A stretch of DNA of 64,000 nucleotides from Anaerolineae bacterium (GTDB lineage: Bacteria > Chloroflexota > Anaerolineae > JAADDB01): assembly GCA_015486845.1 (NCBI GenBank), contig WFQU01000160.1, positions 3,313 through 67,312 on the forward strand, read 5' to 3'. Below the pieces are notes generated by a model. The model was not told where the DNA came from, did not search any database, and worked only from the letters and a program-made list of their open reading frames with translations. Positions 5,446 through 60,002 of the stretch are shown in pieces; position 1 is the first letter of the stretch; each line of letters opens with the position of its first letter. The position numbers and the translations under genes were made by a program.

Positions 5446-5468
5446 GTGGTGTGCCTCCTTTGAAAATA

Positions 5469-5700
5469 AAATGGGACGGAGATCAACGCGGGCTGCGCAC
5501 GCAGATAAAAAATCAAGCCTTCTTTAAAGAAGTTCAACTTCTTCGAGAAGTTGAACTTCTAATTGACGGGGTTGGCCGACTTAGCGCACGGAGCTCAAAG
5601 CTCTGTGCTACGTAAATGATAAGCCTCTTAGAAAGGGGCTGGTGTTAAGCGGCCTCTTTACAGAGGACGTTACCTTGACGTACCCCGCTGCCGTACCGGA
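5469..5700 (+). repeat. intergenic mosaic repeat, family A copy A1 (contains the 15-bp inverted repeat AGAAGTTCAACTTCT-N5-AGAAGTTGAACTTCT)
   Basis: Near-identical to 20349-20575. It is the reverse complement of 52600-52822 and 54808-55048. The hairpin is at 5528-5560. The terminal module abuts the MFS start codon. Confidence 0.8.
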
Positions 5701-5840
5701 ATTAAGGCTTTAGCCGGTGGTAGATCCACTAACCCGCCTAAAGGCTCGACGTCAGCCGCATCATTTTCATCCGTTGTGGTAGGCCTGTCTGCGTGCCCGC
5801 ACAGGCAGGCCACAGGCCCATCTGAAAATAAACTTCTCTG

Positions 5841-5953
5841 GAGGGTAGCCGAGGGCATTGCCCTCGGCTACCCTCTCCTCCGAAAAATAGAACGCCGACT
5901 AATCGCCCTACGGCGATTTGGCAGACGTTGCCGTGACTTTCAGTCGCTGGGCC
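5841..5953. repeat. 36-bp palindrome plus a partial family B module (B8, no core palindrome)
   Basis: A perfect palindrome gagggtagccgagggca/tgccctcggctaccctc lies at 5841-5876. The segment ccgactaatcgccctacggcgatttggcagacgttgccgtgact matches B-element arms at 12090, 34430 and 54700. Confidence 0.6.
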
Positions 5954-6084
5954 ATCTTTTTCTTTCGAGAGCACTGCCCTCGAGCTCCCCGCAGGGGAAC
6001 CGTATGGTTTCCTTCCAACCCTTCTGAAAAGCGTTCCCCCAGCTAAGGTGGTCAAACGAATTAAATAGGTCGTTGCTATTCATG

Positions 6085-11446: not shown

Positions 11447-11527
11447 CTCTGGCGTCGGTGTGGGTGGCAGCTGAGCAGCTGAATAGTATCATAGTTGTTT
11501 GGAATGCGTCAAGTGGTAGGGCGCGAG

Positions 11528-11558
11528 ACGTTCAACTTCTCTCAGAAGTTGAACGTCT
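11528..11558. repeat. family A hairpin-only copy (A5): gacgttcaacttct-ctcag-agaagttgaacgtc
   Basis: A 13-bp perfect inverted repeat related to the AGAAGTTCAACTTCT hairpin of family A. Confidence 0.6.
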
Positions 11559-12065
11559 TCAGCTGTGCGGGCTCAACCGCAATTGTGGCCGGCGGTAAGA
11601 TATTGGCTCGGGGCGACTGAAGTCACGCCGGGGGGGGCAGTTCGCTGCGCTCACCGCCGGGCGACCACCTGTCAGGGACGATTTTTGCCCTCGTTTATTA
11701 CTTTACACTAGGGTAGTTATGTAAAGTAACGGAAGAAAAGCAAGGAGTCTGTCCGGCTCCAATGGTTGGCAGCGCATATAAAGGCGATTCTGCCCTCTTT
11801 ATGCCTCGGTTCGCTGCAATGCTGTTTCATGATCAGGTGTGTGCTGTTCCACCACACGCAATCGATGATCTATTGTGGCGCAGACCGATCACGATCCGCC
11901 GCGATGGGTTATGCCGGGCAACATGGGCGTTGTCACCTGGCCTTCCCTCGTTTCGCGCTTAACGTGCGGACTAAGGCGGTAAATTGTCATACTTTTCTTC
12001 CCGGTTGTTTCTTTCCCAAATCCCCCCACCCTGCTAAAATAAGGGAAGGGTCGGTGTTTTATGCC

Positions 12066-12178
12066 TGGCGACTGGAAGTCGCGGGCTACATTTGCGAAAT
12101 CGCCCTACGGCGATTAAATAGATAACCTGCGCAGGCGGGTTTCGCAATCGTAGGTGCGGTTTTAATAGCCGGTCAAAC
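12066..12178 (+). repeat. intergenic repeat, family B copy B1 (core palindrome AACCTGC-GCAG-GCGGGTT)
   Basis: The motif ttgcgaaatcgccctacggcgatta ... aacctgcgcaggcgggtt ... gcggttttaatagccggtcaaa is shared with copies at 12281, 14098(rc), 17764(rc), 20581(rc), 34345(rc) and 54695. Confidence 0.8.
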
Positions 12179-12180
12179 TA

Positions 12181-12276
12181 AGCGGACGTGGATGACGCAG
12201 GTTTCACACTGATGCACGTAGATAAAACAGAAAAAGATCAGCGTAAATCAGCGTGCATCAGCAATATCAGCGTTCA
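12181..12276 (+). repeat. module C copy C2 (GGACGTGGATGACGCAGGTTTCA followed by tandem ATCAGCGT-like octamers)
   Basis: Similar to 3505-3582 and partly to 52540-52600. Confidence 0.55.
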
Positions 12277-12280
12277 ATTG

Positions 12281-12384
12281 AAGGTCACGGGCAACATCTG
12301 CGAAATCGTCCTGCGGCGATTAGCATGCAACCTGCACAGGCAGGTTTCACAATCATAGCAGCGATTTTAATCGCCGGTCAAAAC
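12281..12384 (+). repeat. family B copy B2 (core aacctgcacaggcaggtt at 12329-12346)
   Basis: A tandem second copy 100 bp after B1. It ends 10 nt before the smpB ATG. Confidence 0.8.
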
Positions 12385-14073: not shown

Positions 14074-14097
14074 TTTTGTCCCTCGTTTATGAATTAT

Positions 14098-14211
14098 TTG
14101 ACCGGCGATTAAAATCGCTGCTACGATTGCAAAACCTGCCTGCGCAGGTTGCATGCTAATCGCCGCAGGACGATTTCGCAAATGTTGCCCGCGACTTCTA
14201 GTCGCCGGGCC
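14098..14211 (-). repeat. family B copy B3 (reverse orientation; core aacctgcctgcgcaggtt at 14133-14150)
   Basis: The reverse complement of B1/B2. It lies about 25 bp upstream of the moeA start. Confidence 0.8.
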
Positions 14212-14308
14212 TAAAAAAGCGGGCGGATCATAATCCATCCCTATGCACCAACAACCATCCATGCGGCACAACGCTTGAGCCCCCTTTTAGGGGGCTTCCC
14301 AAATTGTA

Positions 14309-17667: not shown

Positions 17668-17763
17668 GGTTTTTCCTTTTTGAGTGGATAGCCTTATGAC
17701 TACACGAAATATAAAATTAAACATTGATAATGATAATGCTAATTTGCACCGATTTTTTCCTGT

Positions 17764-17818
17764 TTGACCGGCGATTAAAATCGCTGCTACGATTGCGAAA
17801 CTTGCCTGCGCAGGTTAT
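17764..17818 (-). repeat. family B partial copy B4
   Basis: tgaccggcgattaaaatcgctgctacgattgcgaaacttgcctgcgcaggtt. About 95 bp upstream of the deoC start. Confidence 0.7.
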
Positions 17819-19362
17819 CTTTCAAGCATCACGCCCAAACGCCCAATTAGCTCGTCGGCCGGCACATCAAAACGCTCGCCGCCCCGGCTATGCACCTCCA
17901 CCAAATCGGTTTCCCCCCATTTTCGGCCGGCCACAACCTGCCACGGCACGCCCAGCAAGTCAGCATCGTTGAATTTGACGCCGGCCCGTGCCGGTCGATC
18001 ATCGTAAAGGACAGCCAGCCCGGCATTGGAGAGCACTTCCGCCAAGTTGTCCGTCCGACGGGTCAAATCGGCGTCTTTGCCGGCCAGTGCCAGCAAATAC
18101 ACGTCGTACGGTGCCACCGCCGGCGGCCAGCGCAACCCGTCCTCGCCATGATGGCAGGCCACCACGGCCGTTGCCAGCGCGGCCAACGAAAGCAATCCGG
18201 TCCGCTGCACTGCCGCTTCCGGCCGGCCGGCCCGGTTCAGATACGAAGGCCCGGCAAACCGCGCCCATGCCCCCACCCGGTAGCCGCGAACGATTACGAG
18301 GCGACCTTCCTCGCAGGCTGGGCAGCGATCTCCCGGCCCAGCCTGTCTCAAATTGGCTACCAGATCGGCGCTGTAGTCGCGGTCGAAATTGCTGTTCAGG
18401 ATGTGATACCCTTCTTTATTGGCTCCGGCGACGAGGTTGGGTGATTTTGCCACGAGATAGTCAATGACTACACGAAAGGCGCCGGGCTCCAGGCCGAGGG
18501 GCGACGCATAGCCGGGGACGGTGCCACCGGCGCGGATTTCTTCCTCTGTGGCCTGCCGGAACGAATCCGCGCCGGTGGCACGCTTCAGCTTGACCTCGTT
18601 CAACTTCGTATCGCCCCGCACAACAACCAAATAGCGTTGGCCGTCACCCACCAGGAAGAGCGCTTTGGCGGTACGGCTGGCCGGAATACCCAAGAAATCC
18701 GCCAGCTCGACGATGGTGCCGCAGTGCGGCGTCTCGATCTCCTCGGCCGGCAACATCGTTTCCTCGGACAACGGCGGATTGCCGCTCAGCGCGGCCGCTT
18801 CGCTGGCCGCGTAATCGCACCGGTCGCAAGCCAGCCACCGCGCCGGCCCATTCTCGGCGGGAACGACCAGCGCGACGGCGTCATCCCCTGCCGGCTGCAG
18901 ATCCGGCAGCAAAAGAAGCGGTACATCCAACGCAGCGGCGATCTCCTCCACCGCTTTCGCCCGTCTGCCCACAACATCCTCTCCGGCATTGCCATCGCGC
19001 CAGGAGGAAAATTGCCGCCACGATTGCGCTCCCCGGCCCCACCGCTGCGTGATAGCCAGCGGCAACTGCTTATACGAAAGGAGAAGCGGCTCGGCTAACG
19101 TCCCCGTCTGCGCCGCCAAAGCGGCCAACGAAACGTCCTCTACGGGCCAGGCAACCTCATCAGCGCCTGGCGACAGCGCCGAGCGCACGATTTCGTCAAT
19201 CCGGTCATACAAGCGGACGCCCAAAGGGGAAAGTGCAGCCGAGGATTCAGCGCCGGCCCAGTAGCCGGCCCGCCAGAGCCATTTCTCGGCCACGGTTGCC
19301 CCCGCCGCCGGCATTTCCCTCCAGGTACGATGGAAAAGGCCTTGCATCCGTGTGATCATCAC
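17815..19362 (-). CDS. prolyl-tRNA synthetase paralogue: INS (editing-like) and anticodon-binding domains are conserved, class II catalytic motifs are degenerate
   Basis: The N-terminus ([19 protein letters not shown]), SYKQLP, the INS segment ([17 protein letters not shown]) and the C-terminal anticodon-binding domain ([28 protein letters not shown]) match bacterial ProRS. The motif-2 FRDE..RxREF and motif-3 GxGxGxxR positions are replaced ([13 protein letters not shown]; [12 protein letters not shown]). The segment containing GPTHEE is deleted. Confidence 0.7.
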
Positions 19363-20327: not shown

Positions 20328-20348
20328 AAATACCCTCCTCTAAAACTT

Positions 20349-20575
20349 AAATGGGACGCAGATCAACGCAGGCTGCGCACACAGATAAAAAATCAGGCCC
20401 TCTTTAAAGAAGTTCAACTTCTCGAAGAAGTTGAACTTCTAATAAGCCCCTTAGAAAGGGGCTGGTGTTAAGCAGCCTCTTGACAGAGGACCCTACCTTG
20501 ACGTACCCCGCCGCGGAAGCAAGGGGCCGGCGCACCGGAATGGGACGCAGGTCAACGCAGGCTGCACACGCCCGA
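20349..20575 (+). repeat. family A copy A2 (hairpin 20408-20440)
   Basis: About 90% identical to A1 over shared modules. It lacks one 57-bp internal module. The terminal module abuts the GtrB-like gene start. Confidence 0.8.
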
Positions 20576-20580
20576 CGATT

Positions 20581-20640
20581 AGAAGTCGCTGCTACAACTG
20601 CGAAACCTGCCTGCGCAGGTTGCACGCTAATCGCCGAGCG
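20581..20640 (-). repeat. family B partial copy B5 (adjacent to A2)
   Basis: gctgctacaactgcgaaacctgcctgcgcaggttgcacgctaatcgcc. Confidence 0.7.
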
Positions 20641-20805
20641 TTCCCCCGGCTAAGCTGATCAATTGATTATAATCCCACTCGGCACAAAATGAAAGACAAA
20701 ATGAAAGCCTTTTGGCCCAGCAACAACTATTCTAAATCCGACACGGCTCGCAGAAACATCTCTGAGAATAAGCAAAATTAACCGATTAATACAACTATGC
20801 AAAAC

Positions 20806-26208: not shown

Positions 26209-27377
26209 TGACTGTGCCTGAGACAGCATTGACTTGGGCTGAAATAGATTTAGACGCCTTAGCGTCTAACTTGACAGCTTTTCGCCAACATTTGAAGCAA
26301 CAGATCATGATCATGGCGGTGGTTAAAGCCAACGCCTATGGTCATGGAGCCATTCCCATAGCGCGAGCCGCTTTAGCCAGCGGCGCCGACCGGTTAGCTG
26401 TGAACAGGGCTATCGAAGGGGTGGCCCTGAGAGAAGCAGGTATCAGAGCACCCATTCTCATTTTAGGCTACTTACCGCCCGGGCAAGCCAAGATGGTCGT
26501 GCAAAACCAGCTTACGCCGACCGTTACCAGCCTGCCGACAGCACAAGCGCTGTCGGCAGCGCTGCCCCCGGGAAAAACATTGCCGGCACATATTAAAATT
26601 GACACCGGCATGGGCCGGTTAGGCCTGTTACCAGATGAAGCCGTTACTTTCGTCCGCCAAGTGACACATCTGAAGAACATTAAGATCGAAGGCTTATTCA
26701 CACATTTTGCCGTCGCCGACGCAGAAGACAAAACCTACACATGGCAACAATTCCGCCTTTTCCAGACCTGCGTCGAAGCAATAAGCCAGGTCGTCCGTCC
26801 CCCAATTTTACACGTGGCGAATAGTGCCGCCACCCTTACTTTGCCGGCCATGCATTTAGACATGGTGCGCGTGGGCATTGCCATGTATGGCTTGCGCCCC
26901 GACGCCAACATTCCCCCACCCTACCCACTGCACCCTGTGCTCAGCTTGAAAAGCCGATTAGGCCGAGTGCGCACATTGCCGGCCGGAGCCAGCATTAGCT
27001 ACGGTCGCACCTACGTCACACCGCGGGCAATGCCAGTGGGTCTGGTACCGGTGGGCTACGGCGATGGCTACCACCGGCTCATTTCCAATCGCGGCGCCGT
27101 GCTTGTCAACGGTGTACGGGCGCCTATCGTCGGCCGGGTGTGCATGGACCAATTCGTCGTCGATTTGACCAATGTGCCCAATCCTCATGAAAACGACGAA
27201 ATTGTGCTCATTGGCCAGCAAGGCAACGAAACAATCAGCGCCGACGAAGTAGCTCGCTGGGCCGAAACCATCAACTACGAAGTCACCACCTCCCTATTAC
27301 CTCGCGTGCAACGCTTCTACTTTCGAGACAGCCACATCGTCCAACACAAATCATTAACCAAATTAGCCAAGGCTTAA
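26208..27377 (+). CDS. alr: alanine racemase
   Basis: AVVKANAYGHG (PLP lysine motif) and a C-terminal beta domain. ATGA overlap with livF. Confidence 0.85.
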   Translation: MTVPETALTWAEIDLDALASNLTAFRQHLKQQIMIMAVVKANAYGHGAIPIARAALASGADRLAVNRAIEGVALREAGIRAPILILGYLPPGQAKMVVQNQLTPTVTSLPTAQALSAALPPGKTLPAHIKIDTGMGRLGLLPDEAVTFVRQVTHLKNIKIEGLFTHFAVADAEDKTYTWQQFRLFQTCVEAISQVVRPPILHVANSAATLTLPAMHLDMVRVGIAMYGLRPDANIPPPYPLHPVLSLKSRLGRVRTLPAGASISYGRTYVTPRAMPVGLVPVGYGDGYHRLISNRGAVLVNGVRAPIVGRVCMDQFVVDLTNVPNPHENDEIVLIGQQGNETISADEVARWAETINYEVTTSLLPRVQRFYFRDSHIVQHKSLTKLAKA

Positions 27378-28541: not shown

Positions 28542-30794
28542 TCACGGAGCAGCGGGCGGCCAGAGTGTGTATTTCCGCAGCGCCGGCGGATCGGACTCGG
28601 CAACCCAGAGGGTTCCCCCCTCCGCCGCCATCAATCCAGGTTGGACGGCACCCTCTCCGTCCAGCGGCAACTTGCCCAACCAACGCAGGTCGCGCCCGTA
28701 GAAAAAGTCAATTCCCTTGCCGGAAGCACTCAGGACAGCCACATTTCCGGTTGCCGCCGCAAAGATTATCGCATCGGGGCGGGCAGGTAACGCTGCTTCT
28801 GATAGCAACGCACCGTCTCGCAGACGATAAGCGCGCAACCGGCGAGCCGCCCGGTCAACGACGTACACCACGCCGGCGGAACGATCCAAAGCCAGCAGTG
28901 CGGGGGCGCCCTGTACCCGCAACGTCGCCGTGATTACACCGTTGACAACGTGCAGCAAACGTCCTCCGGCAGTGTCAGCCCCCCAGACGCCCGCACCTCC
29001 AGCATCGGAGCACAAAGAGAGCAAGGAAGTCGACAAAATCCGGGTGTAGTCGATCCGACCGTCACGGTCGTAATGATACAGCGACGGCGGCCACCAACTA
29101 CCGGCATACCAACCATCCTGGACAGCCGCCGCGGCCAGCGGCATTCCCGGCAAGGGATCAGCTCTCCGCCAGGAAAAAGTATTCTCCTGGCGAGACAACA
29201 AGCGCGTCCGGCCGCCGTCGGCGGCTAAAAGTAAAGCCCGATCCCCCGCGCCGGCCAACATGCCGCTCACGCCGGGATCACCTTGCCAGATTTGTGCCAA
29301 ATCAGCGCCGCTGAACGCATGCAGTTTGCCGGTACCATCGTTCAGCAACAGCACATTAGTCAATAACGACAGGGCCACCGGCTGCGCCGACAAGGCGACA
29401 CTTTTCGCCAAAACCGGCCTGGCCCAAACCGCGGTAGGCGATGCCGTCGGAGTAATCGTTGACGTCGGCGTCGGCGTGGCAGTCGGTGGCGACGTGTAAC
29501 GGTGCCAGAGCAACGGCAGCCATTGCCACGAAGCGCCGGTGCGCAAAATGCGGTAACTGTGACAGTACGTTGGGCGGTTCAATGGCCGTATCTGGATGTA
29601 ATAGCGGCGTTCCGGCTGCCCTTGCCAGCGCAACAGCAAAGGGGTCTGGCCGCTAACGCCGGCTAACGGGCACATATTCATTCCCTGGTAAAGAGAAACG
29701 GAGGCTAAAAGGCCGGGCCCCAAGCCGGATATAGTCAACTGACACGATGAAGGGAAATGACTATCGAAATAAAGCCAATCCTGATCGGTCAAAGAGGAAA
29801 ACGTGTGTTGCTGGGAAACACCTTCGTCCAAAGGATGTGCCAACGTTCTGCGATCGTCCGGCTCAAAATAATCACTGGGACAAGTTGGCGTCACCGTCGG
29901 CGTAAAAGTTGGCGAGGCCGTTGGAGTAGCCGTCGGTGTTGGCGTAGATGTTGTCGTCGGCGTCCAGGTTGGCGTCGCTGTGGCCGTGGCTGTGGGTGTC
30001 AATGTTGGCGTCGGCGTGGGCGTGCAGGTAGGTGTGCTTGTCGCCGTCGCCGTGGGCGTAGCAGTCGGCGTGGGCGTGGGTGGACATTCCGAAGAAGGCA
30101 GTTGCGCTGCCAATGTTTCGACTTGTCGTGACGTCAAAGCACCGCCGTAAAGATGAATTTCATCTAACTCGCCGGCGTACGCAAATTGATACCAACGCCC
30201 CATGACCACGTTTCCATGACCGACCAAACCGGCAGCCTCTTTTTGGCCCACCAAAGCGCCGTTCAAATAAAGCTGCAACGACGTGCCGTCATAAACGGTT
30301 GCCACGTGTTGCCAGGTATCTATTACAGCCGGTAGCGTGCTCGTCACGGTTTGCCAGCCATTCTGCCACCCTTCCCAGACAAGTTTCTGAGTCGTCGGTT
30401 CCATATAAAGCCAAAACGTATCGTCATGCCAAAGTGTGGCATAATCCGAAGCCCGCCTGGAATCTATCCAAAAAGATAGTGCGAAAGCAGAACGGCTGTG
30501 CCAACCGGCCATAGGCAATGTCAAAGCGCTACTCCGGCCATCAAAAGCAATGCCCCAACAACGGTACCCGGGCCGAAAAGTCAACGCATTGCCGGAGGCA
30601 TCTCGCCCGGCAGGGCTACTATCGGCTAACGTGGCAAAAGAAAAGTTCCATTCGCCCTGCAACAGCGGCCAAGGCGCCGGCGTGGGCGTAGGCGTACGCG
30701 GCGCTTCCGGGGCAGGCACAGATATCACCGATAGTGCGACGCTCGGCATCACGACAAAGCTCATCAGAAGAAACCGCCAGAAAGAAGCTAACAA
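28542..30794 (-). CDS. secreted multidomain protein: LamG/concanavalin-like domain, Thr-Pro linker, pre-peptidase C-terminal-like domain, Thr-Pro linker, C-terminal beta-propeller-like region
   Basis: An N-terminal signal peptide. LamG-like segment LTLPMAGW...SFWI...LYLNGALVG. Long (TP)n linkers. The C-terminal 300 aa are repetitive and beta-rich. Confidence 0.6.
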
Positions 30795-34344: not shown

Positions 34345-34468
34345 TGGAAAACGTCCGATGATTCTCAACCGCTGCAACAGCTACGAAACCTGCCTGTGCA
34401 GGTTGAACGCCCATCGCCACGGAATAACATGGCAGACGTTGCCATGACTTATAGCCGCTGGGCCGCGT
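34345..34468 (-). repeat. family B copy B6 (core aacctgcctgtgcaggtt at 34387-34404)
   Basis: Lies in the ftsA-ftsZ intergenic region. Shares the arms ggcagacgttgccatgactt and agccgctgggcc with B8 and B7. Confidence 0.75.
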
Positions 34469-34503
34469 AGTTACCCGAACTAATACCTTAAGAACGCCTG
34501 CTA

Positions 34504-52539: not shown

Positions 52540-52600
52540 CCACAGCGGATGAAATTTAAGATCAGCGTGTATCAGCGTTAATCAGCGTTCTATTTTTGCG
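52540..52600 (+). repeat. module C partial copy C3 (tandem gatcagcgtgtatcagcgttaatcagcgtt)
   Basis: Shares the ATCAGCGT octamer tandems with 12230-12280. Confidence 0.5.
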
Positions 52601-52822
52601 TCCGCTGCCAAAAGGCTGCTCAACACCAGCCCCCTTTCAGGGAGCTTCTTGGCGACGTAGCACGAGGATTTGCCCCCCGTGCGCTCGGGCGGAGAACGCT
52701 TGTCGATTAGAAGTTCAACTTCTTAAAGAAGTTGAACTTCTAAAAGGGGGCCTGATTTTTTAGACGCTCTGCGCCTTTGCGCCGCTGCGTCAACTGATTT
52801 TCAGAGGAGAAAGAGCTTCTAC
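52600..52822 (-). repeat. family A copy A3 (reverse orientation; hairpin 52709-52741). The terminal module supplies the leader and Shine-Dalgarno of the downstream gene
   Basis: The reverse complement of A1/A2 modules. It ends ...gcgtcaactgattttcagaggagaaagagcttctacATG (the 52823 start). Confidence 0.8.
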
Positions 52823-54637: not shown

Positions 54638-54694
54638 CAGTCCATTGGGCCCGGCACAAGTAAAACGACGACGGAGGCCGTCCAGAGCGACTAA

Positions 54695-54795
54695 AAGTCA
54701 CGGCAACGTCTGCAAAATCGCCCTACGGTGATTAGCCTGCAACCTGCGCAGGCAGGTTTTGCAGCTGTGGCAGAGCGATTTGCAATCGCCGGACG
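54695..54795 (+). repeat. family B copy B7 (core aacctgcgcaggcaggtt at 54741-54758)
   Basis: agtcacggcaacgtctgcaaaatcgccctacggtgattagcctgcaacctgcgcaggcaggtttt...ttgcaatcgccgg. Directly abuts A4. Confidence 0.8.
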
Positions 54796-54807
54796 AGGCA
54801 GATCTCA

Positions 54808-55048
54808 ATTCCGGTACGGCGGCGGGGTACGTCAAGGTAGCGCCCGCTGCCAAGGGGTTGCTCAACACCAGTCCCTTTCTAAGGGGCTTATCATTTACGT
54901 AGCACGGGGATTTGCCCCCCGTGCGATCGGGCGGCCAACCCCGTTGATTAGAAATTCAACTTCTCGTAGAAGTTGAATTTCTTAAAGAGAGCCTGATTTT
55001 TTAGGCGCAGAGCGCCTTTATGCCGCTGCGTCAACTATTTTCAGAGAA
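54808..55048 (-). repeat. family A copy A4 (reverse orientation; hairpin 54949-54981)
   Basis: The reverse complement of A1, including the module ccggtacggcggcggggtacgtcaaggta. Confidence 0.8.
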
Positions 55049-59270: not shown

Positions 59271-60002
59271 TTAAGGTGTTACAATTACTGTCGGTGACGG
59301 GATCGATGTTAGATTAGCTGCCGGCGACGGCGTAATCGTAGGTGATGGCGTGGCCGTTGGCGTGGCCGTTGGCAACGGCACGACCAGTTTATCCCCTACA
59401 TGAATGACTGCGTCGGCCTTCAGCCCGTTCGCCGCCAACAAAGCCGCAAGCGATGTTTCCCACTGACGGGCGATATTTTCCGGCGTATCCCCCTTTTGCA
59501 CCACATAGGGAATCGTGTGCTGTAGCGGTGTCGGCCGGGGAACCTGCGTGGGCGGGCTATATGGTGTAATCGTCACAGAAGGCACTGGTAAAGCCGTCGG
59601 CGCTACTGGCGTCGGTGTTGCCGAAGGGAGCAGAAGCATCACCACCGGCGATCCAGACAGTTCCACGGCTTGCCGATCCACGTGCAACGGCCACGATGGC
59701 AACGAAGTAGCCATAAGAAAAGATTGTCCCCGCCAAAAGAAAATAGCCAGCAACACAGCCAACAGCACCACTACGGCTGACCGCCAATCGACGCGCCAAG
59801 GAAGCCTTCTTCTTTGCAAAGAATGGCCGCAAACAGGACAAATTAGCAAATGTGCCGGCACGCTGGCTCCGCAATGGCGACAATGTATACGTTTTCGGTT
59901 GTCAGAAAGCGTATACCCACATTTAGGGCAAATCGTTGCCCCCGCTGGCATATCTGCCCCGCAACGTGGACAATGTTTCATCATACTATTATCCCGCATC
60001 AT
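59271..60002 (-). CDS. double zinc-ribbon / transmembrane helix / LysM-domain protein with a Thr-Pro-rich tail
   Basis: CPRCGADMPAGATICPKCGY and CRHCGASVPAHLLICPVCGH, then a transmembrane helix, then a LysM segment (YVVQKGDTPENIARQW...LLAANGL). Confidence 0.7.
   Translation of the reverse strand: MMRDNSMMKHCPRCGADMPAGATICPKCGYTLSDNRKRIHCRHCGASVPAHLLICPVCGHSLQRRRLPWRVDWRSAVVVLLAVLLAIFFWRGQSFLMATSLPSWPLHVDRQAVELSGSPVVMLLLPSATPTPVAPTALPVPSVTITPYSPPTQVPRPTPLQHTIPYVVQKGDTPENIARQWETSLAALLAANGLKADAVIHVGDKLVVPLPTATPTATPSPTITPSPAANLTSIPSPTVIVTP

Follow-up and report, generated by a model that had tools for sequence, protein, structure and literature searches.

A REPIN-like repeat family of Anaerolineae associated with, and probably spread by, a RAYT-like Y1 transposase

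Introduction

Repetitive extragenic palindromic sequences (REPs) and their hairpin-forming doublets (REPINs) flank single-copy REP-associated tyrosine transposases (RAYTs) (PMC5581495, PMC3116915), and earlier work has described REPs from Cyanobacteria and Chloroflexi as well as REP dimers that lie within longer palindromes (PMC3733652). The transposase survey PMC5581495 notes one RAYT group often found in Cyanobacteria and Caldilineae, and one IS200 group whose members behave like RAYTs. Here we analyse family B, a palindrome-bearing repeat in 64,000 nucleotides of DNA from an Anaerolineae bacterium (GCA_015486845.1, contig WFQU01000160.1, positions 3,313 to 67,312 of the forward strand; this whole stretch is referred to as the window). 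Our analysis indicated that family B is a REPIN-like non-autonomous element linked to a single-copy, RAYT-like Y1 transposase gene whose product probably spreads it; we put the probability of this reading at about 80%.

Family B resembles the REP/REPIN-RAYT systems of Pseudomonas fluorescens and Escherichia coli (PMC3116915, PMC2817692, PMC5581495), as it consists of extragenic inverted doublets predicted to fold into one long hairpin. Like REPtrons, it combines many dispersed or clustered copies with a single-copy, vertically inherited HUH/Y1 gene that is flanked by the repeats, its bare copies show no visible target duplication and the copy number of its arrays varies between strains. Family B differs from these systems in having a larger unit (each module carries two hairpins and each doublet four), a GTNG rather than a strict GTAG motif together with a conserved GNAG loop, a protein that is IS200-like by profile, and hosts among the Chloroflexota and Cyanobacteria, not the Proteobacteria. 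A Y1 protein of about 140 amino acids and hairpins at both ends on the coding strand are shared with IS200/IS605 insertion sequences and their gene-less derivatives, the palindrome-associated transposable elements (PATEs). In contrast to IS200/IS605 elements, the Y1 gene beside family B is single-copy and syntenic instead of multicopy, the two ends are inverted, mutually pairing copies of one module, and gene-less tandem arrays flank the gene. The bacterial interspersed mosaic elements (BIMEs) of enterobacteria and the BOX elements of Streptococcus pneumoniae likewise combine a small set of modules in varying number, comparable to the single modules B4 and B8 of the window, and the association of family B with other repeat modules (family A and ATCAGCGT triplets) is a further likeness; however, there is no sequence similarity, and binding of IHF or gyrase is a BIME feature.

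Results

Module structure and predicted fold

The repeating unit of family B was a module of approximately 50 nt that comprised a 7-bp hairpin with a GNAG loop, the sequence TTYGCA-N3-5-GTNG, a second short hairpin and GCCG, and it was searched for as the pattern A-N6-GNAG-N6'-T, followed by TYGCR-A-N-GTNG, a short hairpin and GCCG. The second hairpin took the form GCGAYT..ARTCGC, GCAGTT..AACTGC or GCGGTT..AACCGC. Two such modules in inverted orientation made up a full copy of approximately 120 nt with four local hairpins (H1 to H4), and the 7-4-7 palindrome recorded in the initial annotation of the window corresponded to H3, the first hairpin of the right-hand module. In pattern searches the right half, and the left half on the opposite strand, both fitted the module. 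The flanks of H2 and H3 can additionally pair with each other in a long-range stem, P1 (TGCRAA/TTYGCA, GCAAC/GTTGC), and one strand is predicted to fold as a stem carrying two tip hairpins (H2 and H3) and two outer ones (H1 and H4). The hairpins and P1 were predicted in single copies and in the consensus of a 28-copy alignment, with compensatory changes in H2, H4 and P1, and the predicted folds were strong (z-scores of -2 to -3.9). A covariance model, R1, built from this alignment of copies from the window and other genomes scored just 25–40 bits lower on the antisense than on the sense strand because family B is an inverted doublet. Sequence conservation was highest in the centre of the element and not at its ends, where H1 and H4 make up an imperfect inverted repeat some 33 nt long, and extra H2-like hairpins were present at three loci (L008, L030 and L042).

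Pattern searches yielded about 20 distinct first-hairpin stems, all of them complementary. The H3 stem of the window (AACCTGC/GCAGGTT) was represented elsewhere by AGTCTGC/GCAGACT, AGTCCGC/GCGGACT, AGTCGGC/GCCGACT, AGACGAC/GTCGTCT and AACCCGC/GTGGGTT. Across 55 modules, changes on both sides occurred at 7 of 13 pairs and amounted to 135 cells, compared with 41.8 ± 8.2 after shuffling (0 of 500 shuffles reached this value), and the covariation score was 0.51 in comparison to at most 0.12 in slid registers; H3 pairing was a selection criterion for most rows of this alignment, which makes the percentage paired circular but not the diversity of complementary stems. Such coordinated change of the two arms is what a folded single strand leaves behind, and not a fixed protein-recognition sequence.

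The GTNG motif always lay at the same place on the 5' side of the second hairpin. Most window copies had GTAG (the exceptions being GTTG in B6, GTGG in B7 and ATAG in B2), as did L004, L035, L139–141 and L149, while the remaining lineages had mostly GTTG or GTCG and occasionally GTGG. On the sense strand, the paired columns of 62 distinct copies contained 60 G.T pairs versus 24 A.C mismatches, in an alignment that was fitted by the model and hence leans somewhat toward a G.T excess. The sense strand of family B was also the coding strand of the Y1 gene at most transposase loci. In IS200/IS605 transposition one particular DNA strand folds, and both the G.T excess and the match to the coding strand fit the folding of one particular strand, without proving it.

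A Y1 transposase gene flanked by family B

An initial tblastn comparison, used as a lead only and made with an IS200 TnpA query, pointed to L015:2169-2588, one of the family B loci outside the window. The protein encoded there is a Y1_Tnp member (Pfam E value 2.8e-21) and scored 60.9 bits on the NCBIfam model transpos_IS200 (cut-off 55); a full B copy was located just upstream of its gene, and an H3-linker-H4 module began at its stop codon. Homologues were selected by protein similarity alone (1319 at E ≤1e-10) before their contigs were fetched, and most were about 140 amino acids long and each recorded on one or few contigs. In all nine independently fetched lineages, L015 included, the Y1 gene was directly adjoined by B elements on either side, in many cases arranged in tandem; besides L015 these were the lineages of proteins P0014 (L138), P0018 (L139–141), P0005 (L142), P0116 (L143–148), P0030 (L149), P0003 (L150), P0065 (L151) and P0082 (L152). 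H3 started 0–8 nt past the Y1 stop codon at L015, L138, L139, L142, L149 and L150. At L138 the gene lay exactly between the two halves of B, its start codon directly preceded by the left half (H1, linker and H2) and its stop codon directly followed by the right half, an arrangement that recalls the PATEs in that B looks like a left and a right end from which the gene has been deleted. A left half also preceded the start codon at L145, where a full B copy followed the stop codon, and these two layouts therefore make B look like both ends of a gene-bearing unit joined together. Elsewhere among the lineages the gene had full doublets on its flanks, and no target tetranucleotide was identified.

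The Y1 gene occupied one locus per organism, and its position was syntenic across lineages with 71–80% identity. P0116 was recorded in different samples on 13 contigs; in all six of those fetched, the gene lay between the E1 alpha and beta genes. A gene of the xanthine dehydrogenase family was found downstream of the Y1 gene at L015 and for P0007 and P0014, with an FAD-binding subunit gene upstream at L015 and for P0007, peptidase M16 was encoded upstream at L138 and L150, and in both L151 and L152 the Y1 gene stood between an upstream aconitase gene and a downstream CoA-transferase gene. The number of flanking B copies differed among samples with an identical Y1 protein, P0018, at the same locus (L139, L140 and L141): the Y1 gene and the next gene were 274 nt apart in L139 and 580 nt apart in L140, while L141 had still more B copies (no downstream gene was called there). 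Arrays of B copies therefore change quickly, and the single-copy, syntenic Y1 gene behaves like a RAYT and not like an active insertion sequence.

Two side observations concern transposase genes. At L151:860-1000 and 1421-1540, and likewise at L152, the H1 5' arm (GGCGAATGA or GGCAAATAA) ended two genes, supplying the last codons and stop codon of the aconitase small-subunit gene and of the Y1 gene; the unit of B plus Y1 gene therefore looks as if it had been duplicated in register with the gene end. On contig DRKV01000433.1 of the HyVt-449 metagenome-assembled genome (MAG), a 514-amino-acid open reading frame (ORF; L026:921-2465, minus strand) encoded a C-terminal Y1_Tnp (IS200-like) domain and, at its N-terminus, a weak match below the Pfam cut-off to a response-regulator receiver domain, which would be an unusual fusion for the HUH transposase fold.

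Occurrence among genomes and gene contexts

A genome scan with the pattern AACCTGCRCAGGCAGGTTTYRYA, covering one genome per species, returned at least 55 loci in all; the matches listed were in MAGs of Anaerolineales and other Chloroflexota (several contigs each), four cyanobacterial MAGs, one Abditibacterium MAG and one Ktedonobacterales MAG. The HyVt-449 and BS750m-G45 MAGs had matches on at least eight contigs each. Five Bacteroidota matches fell within a ThiF/MoeB-type coding motif (NLHRQVLY) and were attributed to chance. The HIP1 octamer occurred at 0.1–2.2 per kb in the B-bearing cyanobacterial contigs, as opposed to two occurrences in about 145 kb of Chloroflexota loci and the window, and this contrast indicates that the spread of family B across phyla is not a binning artefact. 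The core pattern had no match in the viral contigs scanned, giving no sign of a phage vector. Searches of the window against Rfam 15 gave no match at the gathering score and no family by E value either, the sole sub-threshold matches being to CRISPR-DR28 with the palindrome alone (27 bits versus 35). A full-text literature search returned no paper with the palindrome sequence, and for miniature inverted-repeat transposable elements (MITEs) or REPs in Chloroflexi or Anaerolineae it returned general REP/RAYT papers only.

No family B copy was present at 80 metagenomic loci around smpB homologues (49–68% identity, 299 kb); with no relative above 68% identity, empty sites could not be compared, and absence of the element alone could be demonstrated. 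Regions upstream of smpB thus do not carry family B as a conserved feature. The contexts of 64 copies were classified by flanking ORFs, which were called crudely after the elements had been masked: 13 copies lay between divergent genes, 3 between convergent genes, and 11 in sense and 10 in antisense orientation between co-directional genes, while for the other 27 no ORF was called within 500 nt on at least one side. Divergent (13) and co-directional (21) spacers were thus favoured over convergent ones (3), with no orientation preference relative to transcription (11:10). An initial bias toward the strand of the downstream gene (34:17) was a by-product of the excess of divergent over convergent spacers and was discarded, as co-directional spacers gave 11:10. 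The lack of a preferred orientation argues against a strand-specific RNA role and, together with the covariation, also against a fixed duplex operator.

Family B and other repeats in the window

The palindrome AACCTGCNNNNGCAGGTT (at most two mismatches) had eight matches in the window compared with 0.34 expected, and none of 100 shuffles reached eight. One match, at 59541, had two mismatches, lay in coding sequence without the module and was ascribed to chance, and the other seven corresponded to the copies already listed in the initial annotation, all of which were recovered by repeat finding and alignment; the repeat family that it described is therefore real. Model R1 returned eight sense-strand matches, namely six doublets (one truncated) and two half copies, and a 19-bit match at 26538-26669, in coding sequence and lacking the module, was rejected as false. 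All eight window copies were intergenic, though about 86% of the window lies in ORFs, and pairs of copies were up to 94% identical. Pfam searches placed smpB, moeA, deoC, proS, a GT2 glycosyltransferase gene, ftsA and ftsZ next to the copies, and every copy in the window sits upstream of a start codon. The window's smpB was also present on contig REYS20-1_SAMN12239303 scaffold_4594 and in run SRR10312495.

B1 (12056-12178, plus strand; R1 103.3 bits, also seen by sequence and fold) is a full doublet with H1 at 12067-12082, H2 at 12098-12115, H3 at 12124-12141 (the palindrome, with one G.T pair), a GTAG-bearing linker at 12142-12157, and H4 and a tail that ends at about 12177. In the doublet B2 (12262-12383, plus strand; 91.7 bits) H1 is degenerate, the copy is recognisable from about 12281, H2, H3 and H4 lie at 12304-12321, 12329-12346 and 12362-12375, and its end is 10 nt upstream of the smpB ATG (12395). 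The best copy was the full doublet B3 (14096-14217, minus strand; 116.3 bits; H3 14133-14150), which is 94% complementary to B2 across 99 nt and ends 23 nt upstream of the moeA start (14073, according to a 402-amino-acid gene call). B4 (17762-17830, minus strand; found with R1 and by palindrome and repeat searches) is a lone right-hand module (H3, linker and H4) located 37 nt upstream of deoC; its H3 (17799-17816) overlaps the proS stop codon (17815-17817), an arrangement that mirrors the position of H3 at the Y1 transposase stop codon in related loci. B5 (20566-20694, minus strand; R1 and repeat finding) is B-like over about 20566-20640 (H2 3' arm, H3 20604-20621 and H4), and its 5' half is replaced by a different repeat that is present again at 6030-6066. 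The ftsA-ftsZ spacer holds B6 (34349-34470, minus strand; 74.5 bits; H3 34387-34404), a diverged doublet 171 nt upstream of ftsZ. B7 (54675-54798, plus strand; 95.2 bits; H3 54741-54758) is a doublet of a second subfamily, and B8 (5885-5959, minus strand; R1 and repeats) is a lone left-hand module (H1, linker and H2) that has no H3 and hence no palindrome.

The gene neighbours originally named for these copies (smpB, moeA, deoC and ftsZ) were as claimed according to Pfam and gene calls. Of the arms said to be shared by the copies, the 3' arm gcgattttaatcgccggtcaaa was common to copies 1–4 only; copies 5–7 form the second subfamily. Arm sequences and boundaries needed small corrections. The placement in operon 5' regions described the window copies correctly, but over all loci it became the orientation-neutral preference for divergent and co-directional spacers reported above, and a motif scan beyond the window, which the annotation had proposed, located copies in several phyla and not in this region only. 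On the antisense strand of B1, B2 and B3 we noted a sigma-70-like sequence, TTGACC-N18-TAYGAT, at 12176-12147 (minus), 12381-12352 (minus) and 14098-14127 (plus). As a promoter of the downstream genes it was rejected, since it is antisense and points back through the element away from them, and the match is to the consensus only.

Neither an outer inverted-repeat shell nor a visible target duplication was found around the window copies by inspection of sequence and alignment. Such shells did occur elsewhere: in HyVt-449 (L002, L013, L026, L033, L046 and L054) the doublet lay within GGGTGCAAGCAAAT... inverted repeats with 8–10 bp target duplications, in BS750m-G45 (L010, L025 and L051) within CAGGGCAATCGCATTT... 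inverted repeats with 9–10 bp duplications, and in AS06 also within genome-specific outer inverted repeats. The doublet inside longer outer inverted repeats resembles GTAG-15 of Anabaena variabilis (PMC3733652); unlike GTAG-15, two of the outer shells of family B have clear target duplications of 8–10 bp, which therefore imply a second, DDE-type route of spread. No DDE insertion sequence with the outer inverted repeats was found in the fetched loci. The BS750m-G45 shell ends in CAGGG..., which we presume to be typical of ISAs1-like elements.

Family A, the second repeat family of the window, is about 250 nt long and built on a 33-nt palindrome (AGAAGTTCAACTTCT-NNN-AGAAGTTGAACTTCT) and further hairpins. 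Its copies were located at 5454-5706 (A1), 20334-20514 (A2), 52598-52800 (A3) and 54804-55048 (A4), and the palindrome alone at 11526-11558. The pairs A2-B5 and B7-A4 (A4 inverted and abutting B7) named earlier were adjacent, and A1, about 180 nt from B8, raises the count to three of four family A copies adjoining a B copy, always on its H4 side. The relative orientation of A and B was constant and the spacers were variable, so that, with the lone modules and a BIME- or BOX-like organisation, composite mosaic was a fair description.

Several smaller repeats were also observed. Three ATCAGCGT motifs with 10-nt spacing lie between B1 and B2 (12237-12273) and again beside A3 (52561-52588); motifs of this type are the reverse complement of the family A head, and ATCWGCGT had 15 matches in the window against 3.8 expected. 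Similar motifs (ATCTGCGTCCCATTTT and ATCAGCGT) accompany B arrays at L149:2060-2150 in another organism. GC-rich repeats with a 6- or 12-nt periodicity (GCCGTCGGCGT...) at 29443-30085 are inside a 750-amino-acid ORF (28542-30794, minus strand) and probably encode a repetitive protein segment.

Discussion

The mechanism that we propose for family B would start with recognition of its hairpins by the Y1 enzyme on single-stranded DNA of one strand. The enzyme would then copy or move gene-less doublets around the genome, as has been proposed for REPs and REPINs with RAYTs and shown for the ends of IS200/IS605 elements, and copies would land in, or survive solely in, intergenic DNA. Binding, cleavage and mobilisation of family B by the Y1 enzyme may be expected from the association and from the E. 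coli TnpA-REP work cited in PMC3733652, and the window's own genome would also have such a gene. Effects on the expression of smpB, moeA, deoC and ftsZ would be by-products. Individual copies may have such effects on neighbouring genes, with B2 positioned 10 nt from the smpB ATG and H3 of B4 over the proS stop codon.

Several results weigh against this interpretation. The L015 protein failed the NCBIfam RAYT model REP_Tyr_transpos (NF047646; 18.5 bits versus a cut-off of 80), and its closest solved structures were IS200/IS605 TnpAs (ISHp608, ISDra2 and archaeal homologues), with the E. coli RAYT structure not among the matches. No Y1 gene was found in the 64-kb window, nor in the fetched loci with the exact AACCTGC stem except L015. 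The G.T excess was largest in the left half on the sense strand of the doublet, which two independent opposite-strand modules would not predict, and the shells in HyVt-449 and BS750m-G45 point to a DDE-type transposase that appears to move the doublet as composite cargo. A broader proposal is that family B represents an undescribed cross-phylum REPIN-type system, covering Chloroflexota, Cyanobacteria and Abditibacteriota, in which the four-hairpin doublet is kept by a Y1 transposase that is inherited vertically, belongs to the IS200 and not the canonical RAYT clade and arose through an independent or early-branching domestication, with the doublet sometimes carried as cargo of DDE-type MITEs; we put this forward tentatively, and consider it somewhat less likely than not.

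The strongest competitor holds that family B is a classical MITE, a deletion derivative of a DDE insertion sequence that moves by cut-and-paste through its terminal inverted repeats, with the link to Y1 being secondary. The duplications that border the two outer shells are what this explanation expects, and the imperfect H1/H4 inverted repeats of about 33 nt could be taken as its termini. However, the outer repeats differ by genome and are missing from the window copies, which show no duplication, conservation peaks in the centre of the element, no DDE transposase with such ends occurred in the fetched loci, and the Y1 link held in nine of nine lineages. We therefore consider a classical MITE unlikely.

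A structured cis-acting RNA, whether a leader, an attenuator or an element for mRNA stabilisation or processing, would account for the strong predicted folds, for the excess of G.U pairs over A.C mismatches on the sense strand and for the window, where co-directional copies are all sense to their flanking genes and B2 nearly adjoins smpB. Over all loci, however, co-directional copies were 11 sense and 10 antisense, the element matches no Rfam family, has no terminator T-tract and is not conserved upstream of orthologous genes, and its spread is explained by multicopy arrays and transposase flanks, which leaves an RNA element as the primary identity of family B very improbable. Copies may still affect RNA in a secondary way, as REP and ERIC elements are reported to do.

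The initial annotation had interpreted the palindrome as a duplex site for a dimeric transcription factor co-regulating smpB, moeA, deoC, ftsZ and others. In its favour are a compatible geometry, the position of all window copies upstream of start codons and the excess of divergent over convergent spacers across loci (13 versus 3). We regard it as the least credible of the three alternatives, given that the palindrome is just one of four hairpins in a larger covarying structure with at least five different complementary stems, has many copies in several phyla and none at the 80 smpB-homologue loci, flanks the Y1 gene in nine of nine lineages and sits at the transposase stop codon in most of them, and is missing from B8, which has the rest of the element. 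A hammerhead or other three-way-junction ribozyme was dismissed from a reading of the sequence, as junction strands of 0, about 8 and 0 nt that are not conserved do not fit, and an integron attC site was set aside by inference, there being no same-orientation cassette arrangement and no agreement with the R'/R'' consensus.

Conclusions

The analysis of family B removes a false regulatory lead, in that an operator annotation is not appropriate for the palindrome before smpB, moeA, deoC and ftsZ. It also explains assembly breaks in Anaerolineae-type genomes of this kind, as contig L057 begins inside B2 and many transposase homologues are on very short contigs, and the covariance model and module definition provide a usable annotation signature for a repeat family absent from Rfam. 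If confirmed, the association would extend the REPIN-RAYT type of long-term transposase-repeat relationship well beyond the Proteobacteria, with an enzyme that is nearer to IS200, and it would bear on whether RAYTs were domesticated once or repeatedly, a question left open in PMC5581495.

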